Source: a virus. Taken from it: a stretch of DNA of 64,000 nt. Below are positions 16,726-56,080 of the stretch, one piece after another (the first letter of the stretch is position 1; each line of letters begins with the position of its first letter). Position numbers and translations under genes: made by a program. The DNA lies in IMG/VR virus record IMGVR_UViG_3300042893_000684, positions 32,001-96,000 of that record. One strand, given 5' to 3'. The notes below the pieces were generated by a model. It was given only the letters and a program-made list of their open reading frames with translations. It ran no database searches and was not told where the DNA came from.

Positions 16726-19700
16726 ATGGCAGATAATTTAATCACCACCAATATTACCGCCAACGCAGACTTCACGAGTTTAAGAACTCAGCTTGCTGCG
16801 GTTACTGCCCAACTCGTAAAATTACAAGAAACAACGGCGGGAACTAACGCCAAACTAGCAAATCAAATTGCTGTAATGAATAAGTCCTTCGCAGAAACTA
16901 TGCGATCAACGGGACAGTTTTCATCACACTTTGTATCGCTTACATCAGACGTAGAAAAATTTGGTAGGAACCTAGATAGAGGAAGACTTAAACTAGGGGA
17001 ATACTACAACGCCTGGAGTGGGCATACAAAGAAAACAAGCAGCCTGATTAGAGACCTGGCCAAGCAGCAGGTAATGCTAGAGAATGCAATCATTCAGCCT
17101 ATCGGCAAAAACGCACAAGGCCTAATGCAATACAATGTTATGGTTGCAAAGGGCCTTGATGAAATAAAGAACAAGACGGCAATTGCAAGACAAGAGCTAT
17201 CTATCATGAATAAGGTAATGCTCGATGGATCTAATCAGCTTATCAATTGGGGTAAGAACACCCAGTGGGCTGGCCGTCAGTTAACAGTAGGACTAACAGT
17301 TCCTCTTGCAGCATTTGGAATGGCTGCACAAAAAGCATTTAGAGAAGCAGATCAAGAGCTTGTAAGACTTACAAAGGTTTACGGCGGACTAAGTGCAACA
17401 TCATCTTCAGAGCTAGCAAAAGTAAGAAAAGATGTTTCCGAAACAGCAAGAGAAATTGCTGGAGCATACGGAATTGCATACAAAGAAACTATTGCATTAG
17501 CAGCTGACCTTGCTGCAACAGGACAAGAAGGCGGAAACCTTCTAGAAGCTACAAGACAGACAAGCAGACTTTCAATCCTTGGTGAAGTAGACAGACAAGA
17601 AGCAATGAAGGCAACTCTTGCTATTCAAAATGCATTTAAATCAAGTACAGATGAATTAACTCAATCTATTGACTTTCTTAACGCTGTTGAAAACCAGACA
17701 TCCACTTCTCTACAAGATTTAGTTGAAGCAATCCCTAAAGCAGGCCCTGTTGTAAAGTCTTTAGGTGGAGATGTAAAAGATTTAGCATTGTATTTAACTG
17801 CAATGAAAGAAGGCGGAGTAAACGCATCAGAAGGTGCTAACGCAATTAAGTCAGCAATGGCATCTCTTATCAACCCAACAAAGGTTGCAAAGGAAATGTT
17901 TTTTGGCTTTGGTATAGATATAGATAAGATTGTAACATCTAATGCGGGAAATTTAACTGAAACAATTACAGACCTTCAAGCAGCTTTAGACAGACTAGAT
18001 CCACTAAGCAAGTCAAGAGCAATTGAACAGTTGTTTGGTAAGTTCCAGTATGCAAGAATGTCAGCCCTATTTGAAAACCTAGGTAAAGAAGGATCTCAAA
18101 CTCTTCAGGTAATGGATTTAATGAAAGCAAGCGCTACAGATCTTGCAAATATCTCTGCTCGAGAATTAACTATGATGACAGAGTCCGCTTCAGGACAATT
18201 TAAAAGAGCATGGGCTTCAGTCCAAGCAGACCTTGCTTCAGTAGGAGAACAATTTTTAAGAATTAGCACAAAGGTTTTAAATGTAGTAGATGGGATCATT
18301 AAGTTTTTCCAAGGACTTCCAGGTCCAGTTAAAACATTCCTTAACGCTCTTGGTGGACTAACAGCATTTGCTGGACCACTAATTATGTTAACTGGTGTTA
18401 TGGCCAACTTTATTGGTTATGTTACAAAGGGAATATTCTCTTTAAGACAAATGGCTACAGGAGGACATGGGTTTAAGCTCCTTACTCCAGAAATATTAGC
18501 GGCAGATGCAGCAGCAAAAGGTCTTGCTACATCATTCTATTCAGATACAGAAGCAACAGTTGTATTAACAAATGCAGTAAATACTCTTGCAGCATCATTT
18601 GATAATCTTCAGGTAGCAGCATCTACAGCGCAAGTTGCAGTGCAACCAAGCATCTCAACAGTTGCAGGCGGAGTAATTGCAGCGGGAACTCCAGGCGGAA
18701 CGCCAAGATATGTTGATAAAAATAATCCATTAATTGGAGATTCATACTCAAGAGATATGTCTCACATGATTCCTGCTCAAACACAACAGGCGGGGACAAT
18801 ATTTGGAACAGTTCCAGGAGCAGGACCAGTAAACGTTAGAATTGGTAAAAACCCTCAAGCATATATGAACGCAGATCTTCCAAAGATTCCAGGTGTTACA
18901 TCTGTAAACGGAACATCGACTGGTATAGTTGCTCAAGAGGCAGCAAAGTGGCATGCAATGACAGCGGCAATTGCAATGCAATCAGAAGCAGAACTTAAAG
19001 TATTAAAGGCAGAGGTAAATGCTACAGGAACAATTACATCAAGTCTATCTAATTCTTATCAAGCCTTGCTTCCAGAATTTTCAGAAATTACAAGCATGGC
19101 TGCACAAGAAACTGCTTTAATCGTTAAGCAGCTACAGCAAAGCAAAATAACAGCAGACGAAGCAAGAATAAAAGTAATTCAATTAAATGCAACAGTTGAA
19201 GCAATGCTTGCTGAGACAGCTCAAAAGATTGCAGCTGGACAAGGAAGATCTGTAAACTTAACAACAGTTCCATTAACATCTCAACCTGTAGTAGACCCAG
19301 TAACTGGTAAATCAAATATGAAAGAAATGTTTCATAAGGGTTCTACAAAAACATTAGTAGATAAAATTGCTAGAGCGCTAGGCGGAGTTAGAACTTCAGG
19401 TGCAGGATATAACATTGAAACAACAAAGCCTAAGTTTAATAAAGGCGGAATAGTTCCAGGAACTGGTAACACAGACACCTATCATACAATGGCCGAGCCC
19501 GAATCATTTGTAATTAATAAAGCTGCAACACAAAGAAACATGCCTACAATTAGCAAACTTATTGGTGGCACTCCAACATTTAGAAACACTGGAGGAATGG
19601 TTCCAGTAGTTTTAACTCCTGGAGAAGCAGTAATTCCAGCAAAAATTGCTAAGCGTAATCCAGAACTAATGTTGCAATTAAATGGTGGCCCAGGTAATAC

Positions 19701-22700
19701 AACTGGTATGGGAAGACATCAAGGCGGAGGAGTTCACCCACACCCTCATGCAGGAAAGCCTATGACAGATGCTCAATACAGAAGAGCTCTTAAAATGTAT
19801 TATGAATTTATTAACGATCCAAACTATGAAGCCAATGTTCGTGCAAGATTTATTGCACTAGATGCTTCAGAGTATTTGGGAGTTGCCCCACAGATAGGAA
19901 CTAAAAAAGCTATTGAAATAGCTACTGCTAATTTTGATGCTGCTAAGGACCTTAATGGATCTCCCGAAGACTGGATTAAAACTAGAACAGCACAGCTTGC
20001 TGCTTTTGACGAAAAATATTCTATGGGAGACAAAAGATTAGTAAAAGAAGGAAGAAGCGCAACGGCTTCTGGTTTAACTAGCGATAACTTTTTAAATAGA
20101 AATATGAACAGGGTTTTAAGATCAATGAGCAGAAACCCATTATTTGCAGAAGCTCATGAAGATTTAAAGTCAATACCTAGAGCAACTGGTAAAATACAAG
20201 GCGGCGGAGGAAGATTAGTTGAAACTGCTAGAGGCCACGCATTTAGAAGATCTTTAATAGCACAACTAGGTGGAGTTGGCTCAAGAGGATTTGCAGGATT
20301 TGCTGCTATTATGCCTGCAGCATTTAATACAATTGCTGCACAACTTCAGGGCAAAAATTTTCAACCAGATGTAATTCATTTAAAGAGGGCAAGTGCAATT
20401 GCTGACTTTGAAGAAATGGTAAGAAAATCTGGAGTCCCTGGAAGCGTAGACGATGTAATACAAGCATTACAGTATGATACAAGATTTGTAGCTGCATCAG
20501 ACAAGAAACCACGAGTTGCTCCTCCATCACCAAAACAAAAAACTGCACTCAACATGTTTTTGCAAGCAATCTCTGCAGGAAAAGCTTGGATTCCAATTCG
20601 TGGAAAACTTGCTCTTGCAGGAGCGGTTAAATTAAATAAGGGTGGACAAGTACCAGGAAAGTTTGCACAAAGATTGTTTGGCGGCGGTAAAGCGTTGTTC
20701 TTAGGAATGCCAAGATCTATTAAGCAGGTTGAAGCCCAGAGAGCCGCAAAGGTTGCTATGGAAAAAGCAAGTCAAGCAGTTAAAGACTCTAGATTTAGCA
20801 AGACCCCAGTAACTGATTATGACGCTATGCTAGAGCCAACATCAGGAAGAAGTTTCCCAGTATCTGGAATTGGTGGAGTTTATAGCAAGAACGGGGAAAA
20901 GGTTTTTGTTAAGCCAGTACTAGATGAAAAAGCAGCGCTTGCTGAGATAAGAGCAACTGAAATTGCTCGTGATGTTCACGGACTACAAACACCTAATCAA
21001 AGAGTTGTTGTAATGAGAGACCCAACTGACAGAAGAGGATCTAGAACACTACTAGCTTTAGAGTCTAAGTACAATCCTGCTATAGCAAATCAAGATGGTA
21101 AATTTACAGAAGATCAATACTTTAGACAGTTAGTTGCATCATCATTACGTGGCGACAAAGATTTAGGCAGGGGTAACCTTTCTGGGAACATACTTGCCGA
21201 TGTAGGTCCAGCTGGGGTATTTTCAACAGCCTCTGGACCAAGAGATTATTCTGCAACAATGCCTTCATTTAAACAACAAGCAATGATCAACTTGCTTGGA
21301 GTAAAAGGAAGCAGTACAAAGAAATTCTTTGCTGAAGCAACTTCAGATATTCCAAGAGGTATGACACCTGATCAATACAATGATCGCATGCTGCAAGAAA
21401 TTGAATCTGCTCTCCCAAAGCTAAAACAAACAATAGGTAGATTTGATTTAAACACAGAAGAAAAAGTTATTTACAATGCAATGATCACAAGACTATCTGA
21501 TGCAAGAAGACAAACTTACAGAGATTTGCATGGAGTTCATTCATCAGTAACAATGTCTCCAGAAAAAACAATGACTCCAGCAGCAATTGCCAAAATGCTT
21601 GCAGCAGATGAATTGAAGCGCAGACAAAAGGGTCACTCTGTAAGCCTATCTGATAATGCATTTAAGACACCAGAAAATGGATTCAATATTGGCGGATTAA
21701 TTGGAAACGTTCTTAAGGGTAAAGCAATGCATAGAATTGGTGCAGGATTTGGCCCAACTGGAGCACCTAAGCCAAGTATGTATGAGTCAGCTCCATGGGG
21801 CGTGAACTCTCTATCTATTGAAATGGCCGACAAGCTATTTGCAAACACAGGTTTAAGAAAGCATACTCAAAAATTATTCTATGACAAGTTTGCGGCAGCA
21901 CTAGCAAAAGAAAAACCTTACGGATATGTAAAGATGCCAGATGGTAAATTAAAGAACGGACTCGAGCCAGACGTGCTAGACTCTGTAATAAGATCAGCCG
22001 CTTCAGATCTTGTTGGAGACAGAAACATAATTAAACAACTTTCTCCAATTGATAAAGATATTTTGCGAAACAAATATTTAAATTGGGATTCTAAAAAAGA
22101 TACTCCGCTTACAGAATCTTTAAAGAAAATTATATTTGGTTTAGAAAAAAGAGAAATGGGCGGACCAGTTAACGCAGGTCAACCATACGTTGTGGGAGAA
22201 AAAGGACCAGAGCTATTTGTACCTAGAAATTCAGGAGGCATTGTTCCAAACGGATACATGAAGGGCGGAAACATTGCAATGCTTGGAGCCTCACTAGCAC
22301 CAATGCTAATTGCGAGCAAGATTACTAATCCTTTACTTCAAACAATAATGCAGACGCTTTCATTTATCATACCTCAAATGATGATGACGGCAATGATGCA
22401 GACAAAAGCTGAAGGCGCACAAGGAAGAGTCGGTGGACTTATGTCTAAGATTCCAGCTTCTGCAAAAACTCCTATATTCTCTACAGCAAGAGGGACAAAA
22501 GTTGCTGGTGAAATGTTGGAAGATGGAACATACGCCAAGGGCGGAAGAATGCTCAATAGATACGGCGCAGCTCTTCAGAATTCTGCCAAGAGCGGGAGCG
22601 CAGTAACAAGAACCCTGGGAAGAATTGGAATGGGTCTTACAAGATTAAATGTAGGACTTGCTGTAGCAACAGGAGCTTTTATTCTTATCAATAAAAGAAT

Positions 22701-25032
22701 AAGGGATCACAACGAACATTTAAGAGTTGGGGTAACACAATACGGACTAACAGAAGAAGCTGCCAAAAAGGCGGGACTTAAGTTTACTGATTACAACTCA
22801 AAGCTTGCAGATACTGTTAAAAACATAGAAGCAATACGAGAAAGAAATCAGTTCCTTTATGAAAGCATGCAAGATGCTGGACTTCCTATATCCATGACAA
22901 TTGAAGAGTATAAGAAGCTTAAGAAGGAAGTTAAGGAAGTATATACTGATCAAATTAAATTAATTAATCAGTCTAAAGAAAGTGAACTTCCACAAGTAGC
23001 AATAGACATTAAGACTGCTCTAATGGCTGCTGGGTTATCAGCAGATGAAGCAAGCAAGAAGATATTTACAATGTTTAAGCTTTCTGAAAAGGGAGAAAAG
23101 GCTGGTGCATTTACTGTAGGTAATCGTGCATTTAGAAATATTAAAACAGGACAAGATGCAGCCGAGGCTGCAATAAACACTTATACTACTGCCTCAGATG
23201 GTAAAGAGAAAGCACAGGCAGTAAATACAGGTCTAACTGCTATCGATGCAGGAATCATTGATATGATTGAGCAAAGTAAAAAAGCTGCTAGAGAAGACAA
23301 GAGTGGAAATACAAAAGTATTAACTCAGTATCAAGCCCAAGAAGCAATGCTTCAAAAACTAAATAAGCTAGAATCTTCTAAAGCTGTTCTTACTGCAAAA
23401 ACTAGAGCGGAAATGATTAAGCAGAATCCAGAACTTAAAAAGATTATTAATCCTATGGATACAATAGTTAGCTTATTTGAAAAGATGAATCTTGCAGCAA
23501 AGGGATTTACTGGAGATCTTTCAAAGTTAGGCGCTGAGGCTGTATCTACACTATCAAAAGTTGCAGATTCCATATCAGAAGCAACCGTTGCTGCGAACAA
23601 AGAGGGTCTATTAAAACAACAGTACATAGATTTAAAGAAGCTAACAGATCAACAAAAGGCATTAATGCAAGCGGCCAAAGGACAAACTGCTCAGCAACAA
23701 ATAAACACTAGAGAGCAGCTAAAGGGTTTGCAAAAGCAAATAGATGCTAATAATAAACTTGCAGAGTCAAGACTAAAAGCATTAGATGCAGCAAAGCAAG
23801 AGGGCGATATTGCAAGACAAATTGCAAAAGCACAAGCAGCATACGAAGCAGCTTTAGCAACAGGCAATACTGCTGCAGCACAACAAGCAAGCTTAGATAT
23901 TCAAGGTCTGCAATCAGATCAGCAATACAACTCTCAAAAGAAAGCAATTGAAGATGCTCTTAAGCTAGCCAATGCTCCTCTTGAGGCTAAGATAAAATTA
24001 ATTAATGACGGACAACAAAAGATGTCAGACAATGCATCAATTGCTGCAGAAAAATTGGGCTCATTAAATGCAAGGATTGATAAGCAAAAACAAAAGATTG
24101 ATGATGTTAATCAAGCAATGGTCACCTTAGCACTAAATGCAGCTGCTGCAGGAAAAAGTATAGAGGATTATATTAAGTTTGGAACTGATGAAGACCCAAA
24201 TGCTGGTAGAGAGGCTGCTGCAGGCCTTGTTGGAGCAGTAAGAACAGCAAAGCCTGGAACAGTTCCTGAATTTAAACAACCAACTCATCCAAAGGGTGTT
24301 AAAACTCCAATTGATGTAGGTACCCAAGCCCTGGGAATAATGGGCGGGGTAGAAGGAGCTATTACAAAAGGATTAGCCTCAAAGGGTATTCAAATGGGCA
24401 GCGGAGATATTATTATTAATGGAAAGAAGATGGATGTTGGCCAATCAAATGCTACTGCTAAGATTAGTTCTGTTCCTACAACTTTAGGCGTAACCGCTGG
24501 AGCCTATGCAGGATCTACAATTATTCATCCATCTACACTTATGGCAGCAGGAGCATCTCAAATATCTGATGGCAAACGAGGCTCTACTTGGGTTGGTGTT
24601 GAGTTTGTAGATAAAAATGGTAAAAAGTGGAAGGTAACTTCTGATGCAGGGAGAGCTGGTCTTAACGTTCAAGCAGTAAAAGCTGGTTACGGAACAATGA
24701 AGCTTAATCCAAATGTTCCTACTATTGTCGGAGACCGTGGACCAGAAATGGCATTTGGCGGAATGGTTATTCCTAATATGGCTAAGGTACCATATGCTTC
24801 ACCTAGATACGATATTAAGCAAGCAGCAAAAATGTTTGAACCAATGCGTGATTCAGGGGTAGGACAAGGTGTAATTAATTATACACAACATATTCATGCC
24901 TCTCCAGGAATGAATGAGGATCAATTAATAAGTAAAGCAAAGGTTGCAGCATATGAATTCTTGCAGGCCAATATAAAAACTAATGCTAAAATGAAGGGCA
25001 ACCCAATGAATGTAGGTATTAAAAACACATGA
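16726..25032 (+). CDS. Tape measure protein (2768 aa) with internal cargo domains including a kinase-like domain
   Basis: Follows the tail chaperone; TP901-type helical core (LALYLTAMKEGGVNASEGANAIKS); hydrophobic segments; GGPV...YVVGEKGPELFVP TMP motif; kinase motifs at about 20860-21210. Confidence 0.9.
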   Translation: MADNLITTNITANADFTSLRTQLAAVTAQLVKLQETTAGTNAKLANQIAVMNKSFAETMRSTGQFSSHFVSLTSDVEKFGRNLDRGRLKLGEYYNAWSGHTKKTSSLIRDLAKQQVMLENAIIQPIGKNAQGLMQYNVMVAKGLDEIKNKTAIARQELSIMNKVMLDGSNQLINWGKNTQWAGRQLTVGLTVPLAAFGMAAQKAFREADQELVRLTKVYGGLSATSSSELAKVRKDVSETAREIAGAYGIAYKETIALAADLAATGQEGGNLLEATRQTSRLSILGEVDRQEAMKATLAIQNAFKSSTDELTQSIDFLNAVENQTSTSLQDLVEAIPKAGPVVKSLGGDVKDLALYLTAMKEGGVNASEGANAIKSAMASLINPTKVAKEMFFGFGIDIDKIVTSNAGNLTETITDLQAALDRLDPLSKSRAIEQLFGKFQYARMSALFENLGKEGSQTLQVMDLMKASATDLANISARELTMMTESASGQFKRAWASVQADLASVGEQFLRISTKVLNVVDGIIKFFQGLPGPVKTFLNALGGLTAFAGPLIMLTGVMANFIGYVTKGIFSLRQMATGGHGFKLLTPEILAADAAAKGLATSFYSDTEATVVLTNAVNTLAASFDNLQVAASTAQVAVQPSISTVAGGVIAAGTPGGTPRYVDKNNPLIGDSYSRDMSHMIPAQTQQAGTIFGTVPGAGPVNVRIGKNPQAYMNADLPKIPGVTSVNGTSTGIVAQEAAKWHAMTAAIAMQSEAELKVLKAEVNATGTITSSLSNSYQALLPEFSEITSMAAQETALIVKQLQQSKITADEARIKVIQLNATVEAMLAETAQKIAAGQGRSVNLTTVPLTSQPVVDPVTGKSNMKEMFHKGSTKTLVDKIARALGGVRTSGAGYNIETTKPKFNKGGIVPGTGNTDTYHTMAEPESFVINKAATQRNMPTISKLIGGTPTFRNTGGMVPVVLTPGEAVIPAKIAKRNPELMLQLNGGPGNTTGMGRHQGGGVHPHPHAGKPMTDAQYRRALKMYYEFINDPNYEANVRARFIALDASEYLGVAPQIGTKKAIEIATANFDAAKDLNGSPEDWIKTRTAQLAAFDEKYSMGDKRLVKEGRSATASGLTSDNFLNRNMNRVLRSMSRNPLFAEAHEDLKSIPRATGKIQGGGGRLVETARGHAFRRSLIAQLGGVGSRGFAGFAAIMPAAFNTIAAQLQGKNFQPDVIHLKRASAIADFEEMVRKSGVPGSVDDVIQALQYDTRFVAASDKKPRVAPPSPKQKTALNMFLQAISAGKAWIPIRGKLALAGAVKLNKGGQVPGKFAQRLFGGGKALFLGMPRSIKQVEAQRAAKVAMEKASQAVKDSRFSKTPVTDYDAMLEPTSGRSFPVSGIGGVYSKNGEKVFVKPVLDEKAALAEIRATEIARDVHGLQTPNQRVVVMRDPTDRRGSRTLLALESKYNPAIANQDGKFTEDQYFRQLVASSLRGDKDLGRGNLSGNILADVGPAGVFSTASGPRDYSATMPSFKQQAMINLLGVKGSSTKKFFAEATSDIPRGMTPDQYNDRMLQEIESALPKLKQTIGRFDLNTEEKVIYNAMITRLSDARRQTYRDLHGVHSSVTMSPEKTMTPAAIAKMLAADELKRRQKGHSVSLSDNAFKTPENGFNIGGLIGNVLKGKAMHRIGAGFGPTGAPKPSMYESAPWGVNSLSIEMADKLFANTGLRKHTQKLFYDKFAAALAKEKPYGYVKMPDGKLKNGLEPDVLDSVIRSAASDLVGDRNIIKQLSPIDKDILRNKYLNWDSKKDTPLTESLKKIIFGLEKREMGGPVNAGQPYVVGEKGPELFVPRNSGGIVPNGYMKGGNIAMLGASLAPMLIASKITNPLLQTIMQTLSFIIPQMMMTAMMQTKAEGAQGRVGGLMSKIPASAKTPIFSTARGTKVAGEMLEDGTYAKGGRMLNRYGAALQNSAKSGSAVTRTLGRIGMGLTRLNVGLAVATGAFILINKRIRDHNEHLRVGVTQYGLTEEAAKKAGLKFTDYNSKLADTVKNIEAIRERNQFLYESMQDAGLPISMTIEEYKKLKKEVKEVYTDQIKLINQSKESELPQVAIDIKTALMAAGLSADEASKKIFTMFKLSEKGEKAGAFTVGNRAFRNIKTGQDAAEAAINTYTTASDGKEKAQAVNTGLTAIDAGIIDMIEQSKKAAREDKSGNTKVLTQYQAQEAMLQKLNKLESSKAVLTAKTRAEMIKQNPELKKIINPMDTIVSLFEKMNLAAKGFTGDLSKLGAEAVSTLSKVADSISEATVAANKEGLLKQQYIDLKKLTDQQKALMQAAKGQTAQQQINTREQLKGLQKQIDANNKLAESRLKALDAAKQEGDIARQIAKAQAAYEAALATGNTAAAQQASLDIQGLQSDQQYNSQKKAIEDALKLANAPLEAKIKLINDGQQKMSDNASIAAEKLGSLNARIDKQKQKIDDVNQAMVTLALNAAAAGKSIEDYIKFGTDEDPNAGREAAAGLVGAVRTAKPGTVPEFKQPTHPKGVKTPIDVGTQALGIMGGVEGAITKGLASKGIQMGSGDIIINGKKMDVGQSNATAKISSVPTTLGVTAGAYAGSTIIHPSTLMAAGASQISDGKRGSTWVGVEFVDKNGKKWKVTSDAGRAGLNVQAVKAGYGTMKLNPNVPTIVGDRGPEMAFGGMVIPNMAKVPYASPRYDIKQAAKMFEPMRDSGVGQGVINYTQHIHASPGMNEDQLISKAKVAAYEFLQANIKTNAKMKGNPMNVGIKNT

Positions 25033-49780: not shown

Positions 49781-49854
49781 GCAACAATAGCTTAGTTGGT
49801 TAAAGCCCCGAACTCATAATTCGGTAATCGTAGGTTCAAGTCCTACTTGTTGCA
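49781..49854 (+). tRNA. tRNA with CAT anticodon (elongator Met or Ile2)
   Basis: Acceptor GCAACAA/TTGTTGC, anticodon arm CCGAA-CTCATAA-TTCGG, T-loop TTCAAGT. Confidence 0.9.
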
Positions 49855-49866
49855 CAGGGAGACAAT

Positions 49867-50187
49867 ATGACAGAAGACGAAGCAAATGATGCAAGGCTTG
49901 CATACTACTTAGAAATAGGTGCCGTAAGTTTTGAAGGTGTTGATGAAAACGGAGAAATAATTTATTCAATTAGTGATAGTGCAAAAGAATTAGCTCCAGA
50001 GCTTTGGCAATCACATATAGACTATGTAGATAAGTCTTTAATGGATTTGTATGAAAAAGGTCTTGCCCATATTGAGTACAATGAAGATTTAGAAGCAATT
50101 ATTAGCTTAAGCCCAGAGGGCCAAAAGCTTGCAAAAGAAATGGGATTGATTGAAATGGATCTGGATCAAGATATTCCAAATGATTAG
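49867..50187 (+). CDS. Hypothetical acidic protein (winged-helix-like)
   Basis: GGGAG RBS; LYEKGL...LSPEG pattern. Confidence 0.65.
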   Translation: MTEDEANDARLAYYLEIGAVSFEGVDENGEIIYSISDSAKELAPELWQSHIDYVDKSLMDLYEKGLAHIEYNEDLEAIISLSPEGQKLAKEMGLIEMDLDQDIPND

Positions 50188-50192
50188 TCTAT

Positions 50193-50265
50193 GCCTTCGT
50201 AGCTCAGGGGATAGAGCGAGACTCTTCTAAGGTCTGCGTCGCAGGTTCGATTCCTGCCGAGGGCA
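50193..50265 (+). tRNA. tRNA-Arg(TCT)
   Basis: GCCTTCG/CGAGGGC acceptor, AGACT-CTTCTAA-GGTCT anticodon arm, GTTCGA. Confidence 0.93.
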
Positions 50266-50269
50266 CAAT

Positions 50270-50340
50270 GCGGATGTTGCATATTGGTAGTGCCTCTGCC
50301 TTCCAAGCAGAAGGGGTGAGTTCGATTCTCATCATCCGCT
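50270..50340 (+). tRNA. tRNA-Gly(TCC)
   Basis: GCGGATG/CATCCGC acceptor, TCTGC-CTTCCAA-GCAGA anticodon arm, GTTCGA. Confidence 0.9.
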
Positions 50341-50395
50341 CAAATAAAAAAATGCTATACTAATCATATGCAGTACAAAAAATAAGGAGAACAAG

Positions 50396-50605
50396 ATGAA
50401 CGTTTTAAAAAAGCTTAAGGATTTTTTTGGAGTTAAAGAAGATGTCTATTCTGTAAACATAGATGAGATTTTAGCACCAGCCAAGAAGGCTGCCAAGAAA
50501 GCTCCAGCAAAGAAGGTAGCCAAGAAGGCTCCTGCAAAAAAGACAGCTAAAAAGGCACCAGTCAAGAAGGTGGCTAAGAAAGCGCCAACTAAGAAGGCTA
50601 AGTAA
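50396..50605 (+). CDS. Histone-like PAKK-repeat basic protein
   Basis: PAKKAAKKAPAKKVAKK repeats; AAGGAG RBS; TGCTATACT promoter. Confidence 0.75.
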   Translation: MNVLKKLKDFFGVKEDVYSVNIDEILAPAKKAAKKAPAKKVAKKAPAKKTAKKAPVKKVAKKAPTKKAK

Positions 50606-51009
50606 TGTTTGAGTACTACGTTAAAAAGGTTACAAAGGTTGTAGACGGAGATACCATCGATGTAGATATTGATCTTGGATTTGATATCTCATTTAGCTCA
50701 CGAGTTAGGTTGGCGGGAATAGATACTCCTGAAAGCCGTACCACAGACAAAATGGAAAAAGCGCTTGGCCTTGAATCTAAAGAGTATTTAAAGAAAGCAA
50801 TTGATGCATCTAAGACTGTTGTTATTAAAACAGAAAAAATGGACTCATCAGAAAAATACGGGCGTATTCTTGGATGGCTATTCCTAGACGGATCTAAAGT
50901 ATCAGTCAATGAACAAATGATTGCCGATGGATATGCTTGGGGATACCTAGGGGATACCAAGGTAAAGGACTTTGAAGCACTTGCTAAAGTAAGGGCTAAG
51001 AAGAAATAG
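50605..51009 (+). CDS. Thermonuclease (SNase-like)
   Basis: VVDGDT, VRLAGIDTPE, KYGRILG. Confidence 0.9.
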   Translation: MFEYYVKKVTKVVDGDTIDVDIDLGFDISFSSRVRLAGIDTPESRTTDKMEKALGLESKEYLKKAIDASKTVVIKTEKMDSSEKYGRILGWLFLDGSKVSVNEQMIADGYAWGYLGDTKVKDFEALAKVRAKKK

Positions 51010-51037
51010 ACAAGATATAAATATTTTGCTATAATAG

Positions 51038-51096
51038 TATACGGACTGCTCAATAGAGGGTCCGTATATTAATTTATTCGCTTGAAAGGGGAATAA
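51038..51096 (+). promoter_or_regulatory. Two-hairpin 5' UTR, ROSE-like RNA thermometer candidate
   Basis: TATACGGAC/GTCCGTATA stem, then TTATTCGCTT-GAAA-GGGGAATAA pairing over the SD, containing a UCGCU motif. Confidence 0.55.
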
Positions 51097-51097
51097 C

Positions 51098-51514
51098 ATG
51101 GTAACACAATTCGCAATGGATCTATTTAATGATCCTTTTTTTATTGGCTTTAACAGGGACCTAGCCCGTCTAAATAGTGCACACAAAATTAACTCTCAAT
51201 CATATCCTCCATATGATCTTCTTAAATTAGATGAAGACACATATAGGCTATCACTTGCTATTGCAGGATTTACCAAAGAAGATGTAAGTGTTTCAGTGGA
51301 AGATGGAACGCTTATTATTAAGGGTGAAATTGTAGAGGTTACAGATGCAGAAATTGTTCACAAAGGTATTGCTGGTAGAAAGTTCGTAAGATCTTTTGCT
51401 CTAGGTGAATACATGGAAGTATCTGGTGCAGAGCTAAAGGACGGCATGCTACATATTAATGTTGATCGCATTGTTCCAGAAGAAAAAAAGCCTAAAGCAA
51501 TTAAAATCAAGTAA
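51098..51514 (+). CDS. Small heat shock protein (Hsp20/IbpA family)
   Basis: YPPYDL, LAIAGF, HKGIAGRKFVRSFAL, LKDGML, C-terminal IKI. Confidence 0.95.
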   Translation: MVTQFAMDLFNDPFFIGFNRDLARLNSAHKINSQSYPPYDLLKLDEDTYRLSLAIAGFTKEDVSVSVEDGTLIIKGEIVEVTDAEIVHKGIAGRKFVRSFALGEYMEVSGAELKDGMLHINVDRIVPEEKKPKAIKIK

Positions 51515-51526
51515 GGTATAATAGAA

Positions 51527-51607
51527 ATCTGCACCCCGTCACTGGGAAGTCGCAGATAGCGGGCCGTTACCCGCAGGATGGACCTGAGTATGTCCCGAAA
51601 CTGCTCA
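51527..51607 (+). ncRNA. Structured RNA candidate: two hairpins plus an H-type pseudoknot
   Basis: ATCTGC/GCAGAT, GCGGG/CCCGC and GGAC/GTCC stems; loop TGAGTA is complementary to downstream TGCTCA; starts just after GGTATAAT. Confidence 0.55.
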
Positions 51608-51627
51608 TTATAATTAAAGGATAGGTA

Positions 51628-51816
51628 ATGCCAGTATACGAATACAAGTGCTCATATGATGATGCACATCCAACAATGTCAGTACATAGATCTATTAATG
51701 ATAATGATCCAGGATACACATGCGTAGAGTGTGAAGCAAATATGACAAGACACTTTACACCGTTCGGCATACAGTTTAAAGGTAACGGGTTTTATAAAAC
51801 AGACAATCCTAAATAG
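51628..51816 (+). CDS. FmdB-family zinc-ribbon protein
   Basis: MPVYEYKC...CVEC...FKGNGFYKTD. Confidence 0.85.
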   Translation: MPVYEYKCSYDDAHPTMSVHRSINDNDPGYTCVECEANMTRHFTPFGIQFKGNGFYKTDNPK

Positions 51817-51867
51817 TTCAATGATATAATTAACTAAGCAGACATAGTGTTTGTTTAGGAGTTATAG

Positions 51868-53811
51868 TTGACTAGGACTAAAGCATGGAGATTATCATTA
51901 GCATTCATTTTAATGTTTGGATGGCTATTTCTCACACCTGCTTATAGCGATGATCCACTTTCAGTTGCCGCTGAAGAGATAGCAGAACTAAACGAAAAGG
52001 TAACAAATCTTACAGAAGAGGCAGATACTAGAGCCTTAATAAATATAGCAGAAGACAAATACGATGCAGCAGTAGCATCAAAATCTGCTAGGGATAGCGC
52101 ATATGCTGCATATAATGAGGCGGTAGAAGCAGAAACAACAGCATTGTCTGAAAAAACAACAGCTCAATCAGCAGTAGATGGGCAAACGGTAACAGTTGCT
52201 ACAGCCTTAGAAGATAAAAACGATGCTCAAGATGTATTAGATATAGCAAACATAAATCTACAAACAACGCAATCTACTGTTCAATCCGCTGGTAATCAGG
52301 GACTGGAATATACTGTTTATACCTTATTAAGAAATGGTAGCCAAGCAGTGACTGGATCTGTTATATGTACTGGTATATGGAATTCAAATTTAATGAACCT
52401 CCCAGTTTGCGGATATTACGAAGATATCATTGTTAAGTTTACTGGAAAAATTACAGTTCCTTCAGACTGGACTTCAGTATATTTTGCAGGATATACAGAT
52501 GATGGTTTTAGGATGTATGTGGACGGAAACCTTGCCGTTGATAACTGGGTAGAACAAGGATCGACATGGAGTCCTTACTCACCAGTTTATGATGTTAGTC
52601 AAGATAAAACTTTAGATGTAGAAATATGGTGGTATAACGGTGGCGGCCCAGGCTCGTATCACCTTGGCTGGTCAATTCCAGGCGGGTGGACTGGTGCGGG
52701 ATGTGCTTATACTGGAGGATGGGGTATAGGATTTAGTTGTAATTTAAATACATTTTCTTATGGCGTAGGTGCAACACAATCACAAATTGATGCATACAAT
52801 GCAGCAGTAACTGCACAGGCGACGGCACAGACAGATTACAATACTAAGCTTGCTACATACAATACAGCAAATTCTACATTAACCACATACAGTCAAACAT
52901 TAACAACTAAGACTAATACCTATAATACTGCAGTAACAAATACAGCAAATGCATTAGCTGCTAAAAATAATACACAGTCAACTTATGATCAATCTATTAT
53001 TAATTTAAATAATGCAATAGATGATGCATGGGAATTATATAATGAAACTTGGCAATTTGAAGAACAACAAAGAGTTGCTGCAGCAATAGCTGCTGCTATG
53101 GCAAATCAACCGCAACCAACTCCAGATGCAACAACTGATCCTACGCCTGAACCTTCTCCTGAGCCATCACCTGAACAAACTGAACCAGACGATTCCACTC
53201 CAACTCCAGATTCTGAAACCACAGATGAACCGACACCAGATCCAACTCCTGAGACAGAGCCCACTGATGAGCCTTCACCAGAGCCTTCACCTCAGCCATC
53301 GGATATAGATCAAGAGCCAACTCCTGAACCAGAGCCAACTCCTGCTGAACCTTCTGAAGAACCATCTACCAATACTATCACAGAAGAGACAGCAAACCTA
53401 ATTGCAGATTTAACAAGCAAAGATACATTAACTAAATTAACTCCAGAACAAAAAACGGCTGTTGCGGAAGGACTTGGAATTAGAGCATCAGAAATAGCAA
53501 AGGTGGCAGCATTAGCTGCTACTGATAAAAATTTAGCAACAGCTCTAGAAGAATTCGGTGATAGAATTAAAGAAAACGCTAGTGCTCCAATGCCATATAC
53601 ATTAGCAGATGCAACAACAGAGGTTGCCACAGAAGCATTTTTATCAGACCCAATTGGAGCTATTGCGGATATTGATTTTGAGAAATTATTTAGCCCATCA
53701 GAATGGGGTAAGGATATGACGGATGATCAAAGAGAAAAAGCACAAGAGGTTGTAGTGCCAGTAATTATTGCAGGAAATATAGTGGCAGCAGCCATGACAA
53801 GGAGGATATAA
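51868..53811 (+). CDS. Secreted/membrane protein with PA14 domain, coiled coils and Pro/Thr/Glu linker
   Basis: Signal peptide; FTGKI, TDDGFRMYVDG, WWYNGGGPG PA14 motifs; PEP(T/S) repeats; hydrophobic C-terminus followed by RR. Confidence 0.8.
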   Translation: MTRTKAWRLSLAFILMFGWLFLTPAYSDDPLSVAAEEIAELNEKVTNLTEEADTRALINIAEDKYDAAVASKSARDSAYAAYNEAVEAETTALSEKTTAQSAVDGQTVTVATALEDKNDAQDVLDIANINLQTTQSTVQSAGNQGLEYTVYTLLRNGSQAVTGSVICTGIWNSNLMNLPVCGYYEDIIVKFTGKITVPSDWTSVYFAGYTDDGFRMYVDGNLAVDNWVEQGSTWSPYSPVYDVSQDKTLDVEIWWYNGGGPGSYHLGWSIPGGWTGAGCAYTGGWGIGFSCNLNTFSYGVGATQSQIDAYNAAVTAQATAQTDYNTKLATYNTANSTLTTYSQTLTTKTNTYNTAVTNTANALAAKNNTQSTYDQSIINLNNAIDDAWELYNETWQFEEQQRVAAAIAAAMANQPQPTPDATTDPTPEPSPEPSPEQTEPDDSTPTPDSETTDEPTPDPTPETEPTDEPSPEPSPQPSDIDQEPTPEPEPTPAEPSEEPSTNTITEETANLIADLTSKDTLTKLTPEQKTAVAEGLGIRASEIAKVAALAATDKNLATALEEFGDRIKENASAPMPYTLADATTEVATEAFLSDPIGAIADIDFEKLFSPSEWGKDMTDDQREKAQEVVVPVIIAGNIVAAAMTRRI

Positions 53812-54008
53812 TGAAAATAATTAAAGGTTTCTTTAATTGGATATGGGAAGCAGTAAAGGAAAGCATAGCCCAACTATGGACCCTCCTTGGGTTCTTTATA
53901 GCCTGGCTAACCCTTACAGGGACAGCACAGGATGTAGTCGGCATAGCAACAGTAATAGTTACTGTAATTTGGCTAATTACCATACCCCTCAGAAAAGACG
54001 AGGAATAA
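53811..54008 (+). CDS. Two-TM small membrane protein (holin-like)
   Basis: Two hydrophobic helices with a charged C-terminus; close to the lysin gene. Confidence 0.55.
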   Translation: MKIIKGFFNWIWEAVKESIAQLWTLLGFFIAWLTLTGTAQDVVGIATVIVTVIWLITIPLRKDEE

Positions 54009-54022
54009 GGTATAATAGAGTT

Positions 54023-54241
54023 ATGAAAAGAATAACTGCTATTGCTTTGTCAGGTCTATTGATGCTATCATTGACTGGTTGCGGCTATCAAGGTTTTTAC
54101 AGATACCCATGCCAAGACCCTGCTAATTGGGAGAAAGCTGAATGCAATCCTCCAATTTGTGAAGCGACAGGCACATGCACTAAAGATGTAATTGGTAAAG
54201 ATCCAATTGCAGAAGACAAGACGGGTACACCAAATGGCTAA
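54023..54241 (+). CDS. Cys-rich lipoprotein
   Basis: True start 54023, leaderless after GGTATAAT; lipobox LTG-C; four further Cys. Confidence 0.75.
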   Translation: MKRITAIALSGLLMLSLTGCGYQGFYRYPCQDPANWEKAECNPPICEATGTCTKDVIGKDPIAEDKTGTPNG

Positions 54242-54644
54242 AGAAAGACTAAGTCCACAGGATCTAGATGCTAGATTAAAATTTATTTTAGGAATTACAT
54301 TAGGCACAATTCTTTTGTGCACATCATTGGGCATTCTGTATGCTCTAATTTTCGTAACACAACCAATTGGCGGACAGTCAGAGAACGATAAGATGTTCTT
54401 TAATGTGCTTGGTTCTGTTGCAACATTTATTACAGGAACACTTGCAGGCCTATTAATTGGTCAATCTGGTGCTAAGGATATTATGTCGGCACAGATAGCA
54501 AATAAAGAAGTAGATGCAAAGAATACACAGGCTGATAAAAAGCTCGAAGCAGAGATTGATGCTACTGCAGCACGACTAGCAGCAAAGCCAGACGGAGCAA
54601 TGCCAGAAGAGCAACCAGTAGACACAGATTGGGATAAAGACTAA
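54234..54644 (+). CDS. Two-TM membrane protein (holin candidate)
   Basis: Start MAKERL; two TM helices; coupled to the lysin gene. Confidence 0.65.
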   Translation: MAKERLSPQDLDARLKFILGITLGTILLCTSLGILYALIFVTQPIGGQSENDKMFFNVLGSVATFITGTLAGLLIGQSGAKDIMSAQIANKEVDAKNTQADKKLEAEIDATAARLAAKPDGAMPEEQPVDTDWDKD

Positions 54645-55228
54645 TGGCAGACCAAGGTACAGCAGCACGTTTAATTGAAGTTGCTACAGCAGAACTAGGA
54701 ACTATTGAAGGTCCTAAAGATAACGAAACTAAGTACGGTGCTTTTATGAAAGCAAACTTTCAGCCATGGTGTGGATCATTTGTTAACTGGTGTGCAAATG
54801 AAGCGGGAGTAAAGATTCCTAATACTGTATACACCCCAGGAGGAGCCGCAGCATTTAAGAAGGCTGGGGCATGGATCGATGGAGACATTGCAGATCCAGA
54901 GCCAGGAGATATTGCCTATTTTGATTTCCCATCAGATGGCGTCGATAGAATTTCTCACGTTGGAATTGTTGTAAAAGATAACGAAGACGGAACTGTCTGG
55001 TGTATCGAAGGTAACACTTCTTCAAAGAAGGCTGGAAGCCAAAGAAATGGTGGAGAAACTTGCAAGCAACTTCGTGCTTATAAAAAGAACAAAGCTGGAG
55101 TAATGATTTCAATCGTAGGATTTGGTCGCCCAAAGTTTAAGGGTTCATCTGCAGCATCTGCTCCATCTGCTTCAGCAAAAAAGACTGCTAAATCTCAGCC
55201 AAAAGTTTGCCCAACCTGCGGTAAGTAA
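54644..55228 (+). CDS. Endolysin, CHAP/NlpC-P60 peptidase
   Basis: PWCGSFVNW, PGDI, SHVGIV, IEGNT. Confidence 0.88.
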   Translation: MADQGTAARLIEVATAELGTIEGPKDNETKYGAFMKANFQPWCGSFVNWCANEAGVKIPNTVYTPGGAAAFKKAGAWIDGDIADPEPGDIAYFDFPSDGVDRISHVGIVVKDNEDGTVWCIEGNTSSKKAGSQRNGGETCKQLRAYKKNKAGVMISIVGFGRPKFKGSSAASAPSASAKKTAKSQPKVCPTCGK

Positions 55229-55377
55229 TGAATACCTACAGGGTTAAGTTAGAAGTAGAAGCAGAAGTAGAGGCTTTTAACGAAACTGATGCCAAAGACT
55301 ATGTAGCAGATATATTTAATATCGACGATGAAATTAAAAAAGTTAATATAATTAAAATAACAGAAAAAAACAAATAA
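55228..55377 (+). CDS. 49-aa hypothetical protein (not in ORF track)
   Basis: MNTYRVKLEVEAEVEAF...; TAATG-coupled. Confidence 0.6.
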   Translation: MNTYRVKLEVEAEVEAFNETDAKDYVADIFNIDDEIKKVNIIKITEKNK

Positions 55378-55382
55378 AATCC

Positions 55383-55412
55383 TTGACAGAGCCGCAGTTT
55401 TTAATGTATAAT
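55383..55412 (+). promoter_or_regulatory. Consensus promoter TTGACA-18-TATAAT (TG-extended) embedded in a long inverted repeat
   Basis: Perfect hexamers upstream of tRNA-Asn. Confidence 0.8.
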
Positions 55413-55438
55413 AATACAAGAGACTGCGGTTTCTGCTT

Positions 55439-55511
55439 TGGCTCATAGCTCAGCAGGCAGAGCGGGAAGCTGTTAACTTCTAGGTCCTAGGTTCGAGTCC
55501 TAGTGGGCCAG
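55439..55511 (+). tRNA. tRNA-Asn(GTT)
   Basis: TGGCTCA/TGGGCCA acceptor, GGAAG-CTGTTAA-CTTCT anticodon arm, GTTCGAG. Confidence 0.9.
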
Positions 55512-55548
55512 CAAAGCAATCTAGGCGGACTTACTAGATAGGAAAGAA

Positions 55549-55782: not shown

Positions 55783-56080
55783 ATTAGGCGTAGATGAAGA
55801 TGATCTTGATTGGTTCCACCTTGGTATTTGTAGAGGTATGGACACAAACTTATTCTATGATAAATATGAAGCAGATATAAATATAGCAAAAAGTATTGAT
55901 GAGGCTTGCCTTTCTTGCCCCGTTTCAAAGATGTGTTACCAAGCTGGGATAGAAAATGATGAGCAAGGAGTATGGGGCGGGATCTACTTAAACTCTGGAG
56001 CAATAGATAAGTCAAGGAATGTACATAAGACAGCAGATGTTTGGAAAAGGATAAGGTCTAAAAATGGAATTCATAAATAA
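55763..56080 (+). CDS. whiB: WhiB-family transcription factor
   Basis: W...C, CLSCPV...C four-Cys pattern and GVWGG turn. Confidence 0.92.
   Translation: MSDILNELGVDEDDLDWFHLGICRGMDTNLFYDKYEADINIAKSIDEACLSCPVSKMCYQAGIENDEQGVWGGIYLNSGAIDKSRNVHKTADVWKRIRSKNGIHK

Follow-up and report, generated by a model that had tools for sequence, protein, structure and literature searches.

The DNA analysed here, a 64,000-nucleotide stretch referred to below as the window, comprises positions 32001-96000 of the 104,426-bp virus record IMGVR_UViG_3300042893_000684. All of its large genes lie on the + strand, and it carries a siphophage structural module of the normal type, ordered as collagen-like fibre, portal, head protease, capsid protein, adaptor, Ig-domain tail protein, tape measure protein (TMP), minor tail and fibre/spike. 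A reading of the sequence alone (the original prediction) had placed a HipA/PI3K-like kinase inside the TMP. We found that a kinase fold is confidently predicted there, and that it belongs to a module which close relatives of this phage may carry or lack. The gene and the domain lie in the window as follows.

16726..25032, + strand: TMP gene, 2768 amino acids (aa), a single stop-free frame.
20719..21588, + strand: kinase-fold domain, TMP aa 1332-1621, with a long N-terminal helix, a beta-rich N-lobe and a helical C-lobe in the AlphaFold2 (AF2) model.

The 2768-aa open reading frame (ORF) is a genuine TMP of the TP901 type, as seen from its PF10145 match, its place in the gene order and its being the longest tail gene. 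The Pfam match to PF10145 covered aa 239-438 (E = 1e-26), and nine PHROG TMP families matched within aa 18-863.

AF2 model 1 covered TMP aa 1312-1692 (381 residues) and was built from a 64-sequence alignment. Its predicted template modelling score (pTM) was 0.75; the predicted local distance difference test score (pLDDT) was at least 90 in 238 of the 381 residues, with block means of 84-98 across segment residues 21-310, equivalent to TMP aa 1332-1621. Model 2 (aa 1304-1860), derived from an independent and shallower alignment, agreed with model 1 in secondary structure. The top Foldseek match in the Protein Data Bank (PDB) was CtkA (JHP0940) of Helicobacter pylori (E = 3.7e-4, probability 0.99), and it was followed by PAN3, MAP kinases, PI3K, LegK7 and LepB.

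A scan of 48,161 representative PDB chains with VIA-align, independent of Foldseek, returned kinase-fold proteins at all 50 of the top 50 positions. The best structural match was CotH, an atypical Ser/Thr kinase of the Bacillus spore coat (PDB 5jd9/5jda, PF08757), with Z 11.6 and a root-mean-square deviation (rmsd) of 4.0 Å over 214 aligned residues in the first scan, and Z 11.7, rmsd 3.8 Å, 213 aligned residues and 10-11% aligned identity in a second-look list. CtkA scored 9.5 and 10.7 in the same two lists, and a margin of about one Z unit, as between CotH and CtkA, is to be read as a tie. MavQ (9.8), PI4KIIalpha (9.6), LepB (9.0) and Vps34 (8.9) share the fold at Z 8.9-9.8 over about 210-220 residues. 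HipA scored 8.3-9.1 across 180-208 aligned residues (best 8.9 in the first scan, 9.1 at the second look), a Fam20C-type Golgi casein kinase 9.0, HipT and ATM 8.7 each, PI4KIIIbeta 8.4, actin-fragmin kinase 8.1 and Rio kinases 6-7. A VIA-align Z of about 8 may reflect merely a common arrangement of elements; because the list consisted wholly of kinases and its top stood 3-4 Z units over that value, the fold match lies above the common-arrangement level.

In the model the chain passes through a strand, the Gly-rich loop, a second strand, a strand ending at K1396 and a helix that holds E1407. It continues through two strands, a short helix, a long helix, the loop R-G-D-K-D-L-G-R-G-N, two short strands and D1492-V-G into the helical C-lobe. 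This order fits the canonical kinase topology, with the candidate catalytic residues placed by the predicted secondary structure. On the strength of these models, aa 1332-1621 are a real two-lobed kinase-fold domain of the protein-kinase-like (PKL) superfamily, and the kinase fold that had been proposed within the TMP is upheld by a confident AF2 model with kinase matches throughout.

The motifs from which the original prediction was made are present in the TMP in the order and at the residues that it gave: SGIGGVY at aa 1380-1386, VFVK ending at K1396, AALAE ending at E1407, GLQTP at aa 1419-1423, GDKDLGRGN at aa 1476-1484 (D1479 and N1484) and LADVG at aa 1490-1494 (D1492). The range it proposed, 20810-21545 (aa 1362-1606), takes in the catalytic core and is slightly short of both the domain and the surrounding cassette. 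Conservation was counted in a family hidden Markov model (HMM) alignment of 298 homologues, with identity down to about 30%.

20866..20883, + strand: Gly-rich loop G-I-G-G-V-Y, aa 1381-1386, between two predicted strands; G1384 in 270/270 and Y1386 in 266/270 homologues.
20911..20913, + strand: K1396, candidate ATP-binding beta3 Lys, in model strand E80-87; 271/271.
20944..20946, + strand: E1407, candidate alphaC Glu, within model helix H90-107; 276/276.
21148..21177, + strand: candidate catalytic loop R-G-D-K-D-L-G-R-G-N, aa 1475-1484, after model helix H151-164.
21199..21207, + strand: D-V-G, aa 1492-1494, candidate metal-binding Asp (DFG equivalent); D1492 in 287/287 and G1494 in 283/287.

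Within the catalytic loop, N1484 was found in 285/285 homologues, D1479 in 285/286, R1475 in 278/286, D1477 in 278/286 (Asn in the remainder) and K1478 in 269/286. G1374 (270/270), P1423 (279/279) and Q1468 (284/284) were also invariant, and K1396, E1407, N1484 and D1492 were so in the 64-sequence alignment as well. The five residues singled out as catalytic (K-E-D-N-D) thus proved to be conserved in homologues, the sole departure being D1479V in P0228. The ratio of nonsynonymous to synonymous substitution rates (dN/dS; pairwise, eight relatives) was 0.06-0.20 for the kinase domain, close to the 0.05-0.12 of the essential TMP N-terminal core. As these residues are all but invariant and dN/dS is low, the pattern is that of an enzyme rather than that of a spacer or a decayed pseudokinase.

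The loop can be read in two registers. D1479-x4-N1484 has the spacing of classical kinases, and D1477 is an alternative candidate for the catalytic base; in that second register D1477-K-D1479 can be set against D-R-H in PI3K, the Asn then coming two residues later than in that motif. The D-x-H-x-x-N motif of HipA is absent from the loop (D1477-K-D1479-L-G-R-G-N1484), which has no His in either register. The earlier remark that the His of D-x-H is Gly here therefore stands as far as the missing His goes, whereas the Gly depends on the register, the position being D1479 when D1477 is aligned.

The description of the domain as HipA/PI3K-like held for the fold, HipA and PI3K/PI4K being among its nearest folds, but not for the sequence family, and the best structural matches were CotH and CtkA. 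Pfam gave no match for the window's domain at E ≤ 1; among 31 members of the family searched at E ≤ 5, neither the CotH family PF08757 nor any other kinase family matched the domain. PF00454 and the G-D-R-H-x-x-N loop were likewise unmatched, as was the Pkinase profile, and HRD and APE motifs were not found in the domain sequence. PHROGs had no match for TMP aa 1312-1692, and PDB sequences had none for the domain by phmmer or by family-profile search. Alignment of the family profile to Escherichia coli HipA by hhalign gave a probability of 0.3, and the HipA_C Pfam family was unmatched. A protein-language-model Atlas search led to unnamed clusters of about 300 aa, with LepB_N as the sole named cluster (0.93). 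In the absence of any Pfam, PHROG or PDB-sequence match, the family is an unnamed one of kinase fold, best described as kinase-like with the fold and catalytic logic of the HipA, CtkA, PI3K/PI4K, CotH and Fam20 atypical kinases.

A second kinase-like stretch, D-x-H-x-x-N...D-x-G, was seen at aa 265-296 of the metagenomic TMP fragment P0256, directly downstream of its copy of the kinase. It gave the only weak PF00454 match found (E = 0.008, under the cut-off), and some TMPs may on this sequence pattern carry two different kinase modules.

CotH phosphorylates structural coat proteins and so patterns the assembly of the spore coat, with D228 as catalytic and D251 as metal-binding Asp (10.1101/469122). 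The TMP domain resembles it as a predicted atypical kinase in which a catalytic Asp is followed by a metal-binding Asp, and which is tied to a large protein assembly. The spacing between the two Asp residues is 13 in the TMP domain and 23 in CotH, and CotH is free-standing and acts in the mother cell, whereas the TMP domain is a cassette within a virion protein. CtkA, HipA and HipT are like the TMP domain in being compact and in having a catalytic-loop Asn and a D-x-G metal site. CtkA reaches another cell; HipA and HipT differ in their D-x-H-x-x-N His, while the TMP domain is without both this His and an antitoxin partner. Its loop reads G-D-K-D-L-x-x-x-N, as against G-D-R-H-x-x-N in PI3K/PI4K. 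MavQ and LepB are effectors of Legionella, that is, host-injected enzymes.

The original prediction had raised the question of whether the domain comes and goes among related TMPs. We scored TMP segments by tblastn in close relatives, defined as 80 loci with a major tail protein 69-92% identical to that of the window. The kinase was present in many complete TMPs, at 39-98% identity, and absent from others (L101/L102, L108, L127/L137, L148, L149/L152, L155, L156, L157 and L161/L162) that had N-terminal cores 60-85% identical. The module of about 350 residues (aa ~1304-1658) is an optional, self-contained accessory cassette. It and its flanks lie in the window as follows.

20635-21699, + strand: cassette between linker motifs, aa 1304-1658, delimited by linker motifs and breakpoints.
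20632..20691, + strand: left linker LNKGGQVPG...FGGGK, aa 1303-1322; homology ends at aa 1311 in L157 and at aa 1322 in L101.
21604..21819, + strand: predicted disordered linker with GFNIGG, aa 1627-1698; pLDDT <50 in AF2 model 2.
21817..22137, + strand: small helical 'post' module, aa ~1698-1804; helices with pLDDT 62-83 in AF2 model 2.
22150..22275, + strand: right linker REMGGPV...GEKGPELFVP..SGGIVPNG, aa 1809-1850; four kinase-less TMPs resume homology here.

The exchanges were seen on both sides of the kinase. L106 has kept the kinase and swapped the upstream module between aa 1002 and 1304, its homology resuming at aa 1304. L101 is homologous over aa 1-1322 and 1809-2767, with 234 unrelated residues in place of aa 1323-1808, and the kinase-less L157, L108 and L148 also resume homology at aa 1808-1809. 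L087 has kept the kinase and is missing aa 1648-1805, with a breakpoint at aa 1647. The 'post' module is thus itself optional: it is absent in L087, replaced along with the kinase in L101, and 63-93% identical in close relatives. Pfam searches of the TMPs of three kinase-less relatives, including their cassette replacements, matched PF10145 alone.

Breakpoints fell close to Gly-Gly motifs, at most a few residues away (QGGGV at aa 1000, LNKGGQVPG at 1303, FGGGK at 1318, GFNIGG at 1652 and REMGGPV at 1809), a coincidence that is only suggestive because such motifs are frequent in the region and BLAST ends are fuzzy. Motifs of the x-N-x-G-G-x-V-P type occur at aa 904-912, 953-961, 1303-1311, 1834-1842 and 2675-2683 and likewise coincide with breakpoints between modules; the region considered for them was window 19432-22300 (+), TMP aa ~900-1850. 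The Gly-Gly motifs are candidates for flexible linkers, recombination sites or cleavage sites. A module of about 300 aa lies upstream of the cassette (window 19732-20634, +; aa 1003-1303), bounded by QGGGV and LNKGG. It had no Pfam match, and an Atlas search gave low recognition and no usable lead; the resemblance was sub-threshold (0.88), to a cluster in which 18% of members have the Pfam family of the P22 gp16 ejection protein.

We also looked for the module among proteins at large. A phmmer search of 1.84 billion representative proteins (50% identity clusters) found 167 clusters, 140 of them at E ≤ 1e-30 and almost all of 1500-4500 aa. By word-indexed search there were 846 proteins of TMP length, 74-99% identical in the kinase region. 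By the kinase HMM, 147 representative clusters had the domain, none of them in two copies; 105 of these had the TMP N-terminal core and the remainder were cut by contig ends. No stand-alone form was found, a profile search of proteins of 79-1511 aa giving nothing but pieces of TMPs encoded on short contigs. For 61 of the 105, the start of the kinase is at aa 700-799, directly after the core, while in the window's TMP about 600 more residues lie between the two. What divergent TMPs have in common with it is confined to the core (aa 1 to ~650) and the kinase block (from ~1264-1309 to ~1610-1620). There was no tblastn match, at E ≤ 1e-3 or at E ≤ 10, among GenBank phages (50,697 records, a set that records very near the window may fall outside).

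When GTDB was scanned with a single genome for each species, the domain turned up in two genomes, in giant TMPs both times. These TMPs (L081 and L082) are of at least 3019 aa, with the ORF open at the locus end, and of 2913 aa, on contigs of 42% and 38% GC. Their metagenome-assembled genomes are labelled Bifidobacterium and Acidimicrobiaceae; given the low GC, both are probably phage contigs that were mis- or co-binned, so that host support from them is weak, and the Bifidobacterium label looks like a binning artefact. Two other kinase-bearing TMPs of the group, P0105 (4104 aa) and P0113 (3974 aa), have a precomputed match to PF00691 (OmpA-family, peptidoglycan-binding).

The remaining TMP features are the core and two hydrophobic segments.

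16726..18675, + strand: TMP N-terminal core, aa 1-650, common to all relatives.
18334..18426, + strand: hydrophobic segment, aa 537-567; Kyte-Doolittle 19-residue mean at least 1.5.
22633..22692, + strand: hydrophobic segment, aa 1970-1989, downstream of the cassette; Kyte-Doolittle 19-residue mean at least 1.5.

In BLAST comparisons with more than 100 divergent TMPs, the match always spanned aa 1 to ~574-698. The closest TMPs were those of Streptomyces and Gordonia phages, the core being 31-34% identical to Streptomyces phage TMPs. A further pointer to the host came from a WhiB-family transcription factor gene at window 55811-55984 (+), which lies in a 133-aa frame and matched PF02467 at 43.7 bits, above the cut-off; as a control, PF02467 matched one of 14 genomes, Corynebacterium only. 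WhiB is a marker of actinobacteria and actinophages. Because the phage encodes WhiB, its host is probably an actinobacterium. Elsewhere in the window, many PHROGs of collagen-like tail fibres matched a 619-aa protein upstream of the portal gene (500-2359, +), and 49781-55512 (+) holds four tRNA genes (Met-CAT, Arg-TCT, Gly-TCC and Asn-GTT).

The cassette is a real kinase module, and probably an active one. At infection a TMP, which occupies the lumen of the tail, is the first component to come out, and it forms or lines the route that the DNA takes. On balance we lean, by a modest degree, towards an active ATP-dependent phosphotransferase that would be borne by the virion within its TMP, delivered, and able to phosphorylate a host target before expression of the phage. 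As a segment of the TMP, the kinase module would be incorporated in the virion, kept in the tail in a non-native, extended state, and expelled with the TMP ahead of the DNA at infection. It would then fold, either at the cytoplasmic membrane or on its inner side, with ATP at hand, and phosphorylate its host target prior to any phage gene expression, a protein being a somewhat likelier target than a lipid. We infer catalysis, the module's presence in mature virions, its arrival in a compartment that holds ATP, and the target.

By analogy, the virion may bring a ready-made kinase into the host. In Thermus phage P23-45 the TMP, gp96, is fused to an active RNA polymerase of the virion, for which a role at the TMP pore while the DNA enters has been proposed (PMC10770324). 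Both proteins would thus hold a cytoplasm-acting enzyme inside a giant TMP, but the enzyme of gp96 is an RNA polymerase, is N-terminal and has experimentally shown activity, whereas the kinase here is internal and predicted only. It is from TMP biology and this precedent that we infer injection and action in the host. Embedded accessory enzymes that act on the host at entry are also represented by the muralytic domains of TMPs (T5 pb2; the Rpf motif of mycobacteriophage TM4). Those domains act on peptidoglycan outside the membrane and require no ATP, whereas a kinase needs it.

Kinases are found among the effector domains of polyvalent virion proteins, and the T7 kinase is a precedent for host phosphorylation (PMC5512222). 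Such phage-encoded kinases are proposed, or known, to act on host proteins early, those of polyvalent proteins entering with the DNA inside multidomain proteins. The polyvalent-protein kinases are without a C-terminal subdomain and occur in elements of Verrucomicrobia, Chlamydia and Bacteroidetes, and tape measure proteins are unmentioned in that paper (PMC5512222). Unlike them, the TMP domain keeps a helical C-lobe (model helices 204-295), and by this description it is set apart. The T7 kinase is expressed after entry and is absent from the virion.

Several points weigh against a delivered phosphotransferase. The domain had no sequence match to a known kinase family (Pfam, PDB sequences, hhalign to HipA), so it could catalyse something other than phosphotransfer; AMPylation and glutamylation are also performed by kinase folds (SelO, SidJ). 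HipA and PI3K have a D-x-H histidine that is missing here. A folded domain of about 33 kDa, in at least three copies, is estimated to be too big for the lumen of a siphophage tail, so that a delivered enzyme has to be supposed to be stored and then refolded. The module's position in the TMP is central, with a hydrophobic segment downstream, and this part of the protein may not reach the cytoplasm, the sole compartment that supplies ATP. Since close relatives lack it, the module is dispensable for tail assembly and for DNA entry as such.

Foremost among the other explanations, though unlikely, is a delivered kinase whose substrate is a lipid or small molecule at the membrane (phosphatidylinositol, its mannosides or a cell-wall precursor) and which would remodel the envelope locally for the channel or for DNA entry. 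MavQ (9.8), PI4KIIalpha (9.6), LepB (9.0) and Vps34 (8.9) score nearly as high as CotH and CtkA, LepB_N is the only named Atlas cluster, and the TMP has hydrophobic segments and inserts into membranes. The host is also probably actinobacterial, as WhiB indicates, and actinobacteria make phosphatidylinositol. Yet the two best structural matches, CotH at 11.7 and CtkA at 10.7, are protein kinases, and the domain matches neither the DRH motif nor the PF00454 profile; Z gaps of 1-2 cannot separate substrates.

Somewhat less probable again is a kinase that works in the producer cell, where the folded, cytoplasmic TMP would phosphorylate itself, tail or chaperone proteins, or host factors late in infection, the module then being carried along or clipped. 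The closest fold, CotH, acts on structural proteins during assembly (10.1101/469122), ATP would be at hand with no delivery problem, a folded domain is hard to fit into a tail tube, and the flanking Gly-Gly linkers and disordered stretch could be processing sites. Against this, close relatives build tails without the module, and it moves among TMPs alongside unrelated cassettes, so that it has the look of accessory cargo and not of a device for assembly; fusion to a TMP would also be unnecessary for a kinase that acts late.

We consider it improbable that the fold is silent, that is, a pseudokinase or nucleotide-binding module serving as spacer, plug or domain that binds a partner from the host or the virion. 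The lack of a sequence match to characterised kinase families and the missing His of D-x-H would suit such a role, and so would the thought that TMP length sets tail length, extra residues then being part of the 'ruler'. However, pseudokinases typically lose some of the K/E/D/N/D residues, and here all are kept in about 290 sequences to ~30% identity, P0228 with D1479V excepted; purifying selection is strong, and a spacer has no need of a conserved Gly-rich loop. A chance arrangement of motifs in a low-complexity ruler with no domain at all has next to no probability, for although short motifs are possible in long TMPs, it is ruled out by the confident AF2 fold, the exclusively kinase structural matches and the residues invariant across hundreds of homologues.

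A wider picture would extend the delivered kinase to hundreds of uncultured actinobacterial siphophages, and we put it forward tentatively and with real doubt. There the TMP would be a vehicle for swappable effector cassettes, threaded unfolded through the tail and refolded on the inner side of the membrane, and phosphorylation of a host protein or lipid would follow within seconds of adsorption, before any transcription of the phage. A Foldseek search of the kinase model against BFVD placed large multidomain phage proteins and phage proteins with PI3K/PI4K domains on top. Entries A0A6B9L6W7, A0A4D6E245 and A0A5Q2F0H9 stood at ranks 1, 33 and 44; the proteins noted were a 1340-aa annotated ADP-ribosyltransferase of Mycobacterium phage Onyinye and proteins of Gordonia phages GodonK and Sixama. 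On these structural comparisons, kinase-like folds may recur in virion-delivered actinophage proteins other than TMPs.

Enzymes in TMPs and kinases in virion-delivered proteins are already known; the kinase here belongs to an unnamed family. The literature searched, which was incomplete, yielded no account of a kinase within a TMP. The prevailing view is of TMPs as rulers and channel formers, at most with wall-degrading domains. The cassette raises the biophysical question of how a globular enzyme of about 33 kDa is stored in, and released from, the narrow lumen of a tail. If the proposed role is true, the kinase would be the second class of enzyme, after the P23-45 RNA polymerase, to be brought into the cell within a siphophage tail, and the TMP would be a modular carrier for exchangeable cargo. 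The domain would represent a new, unnamed branch of the kinase-fold superfamily without a Pfam, PHROG or PDB-sequence entry, and its action on the host would be a mechanism of takeover or anti-defence, prior to phage gene expression, that is undescribed for long-tailed phages.

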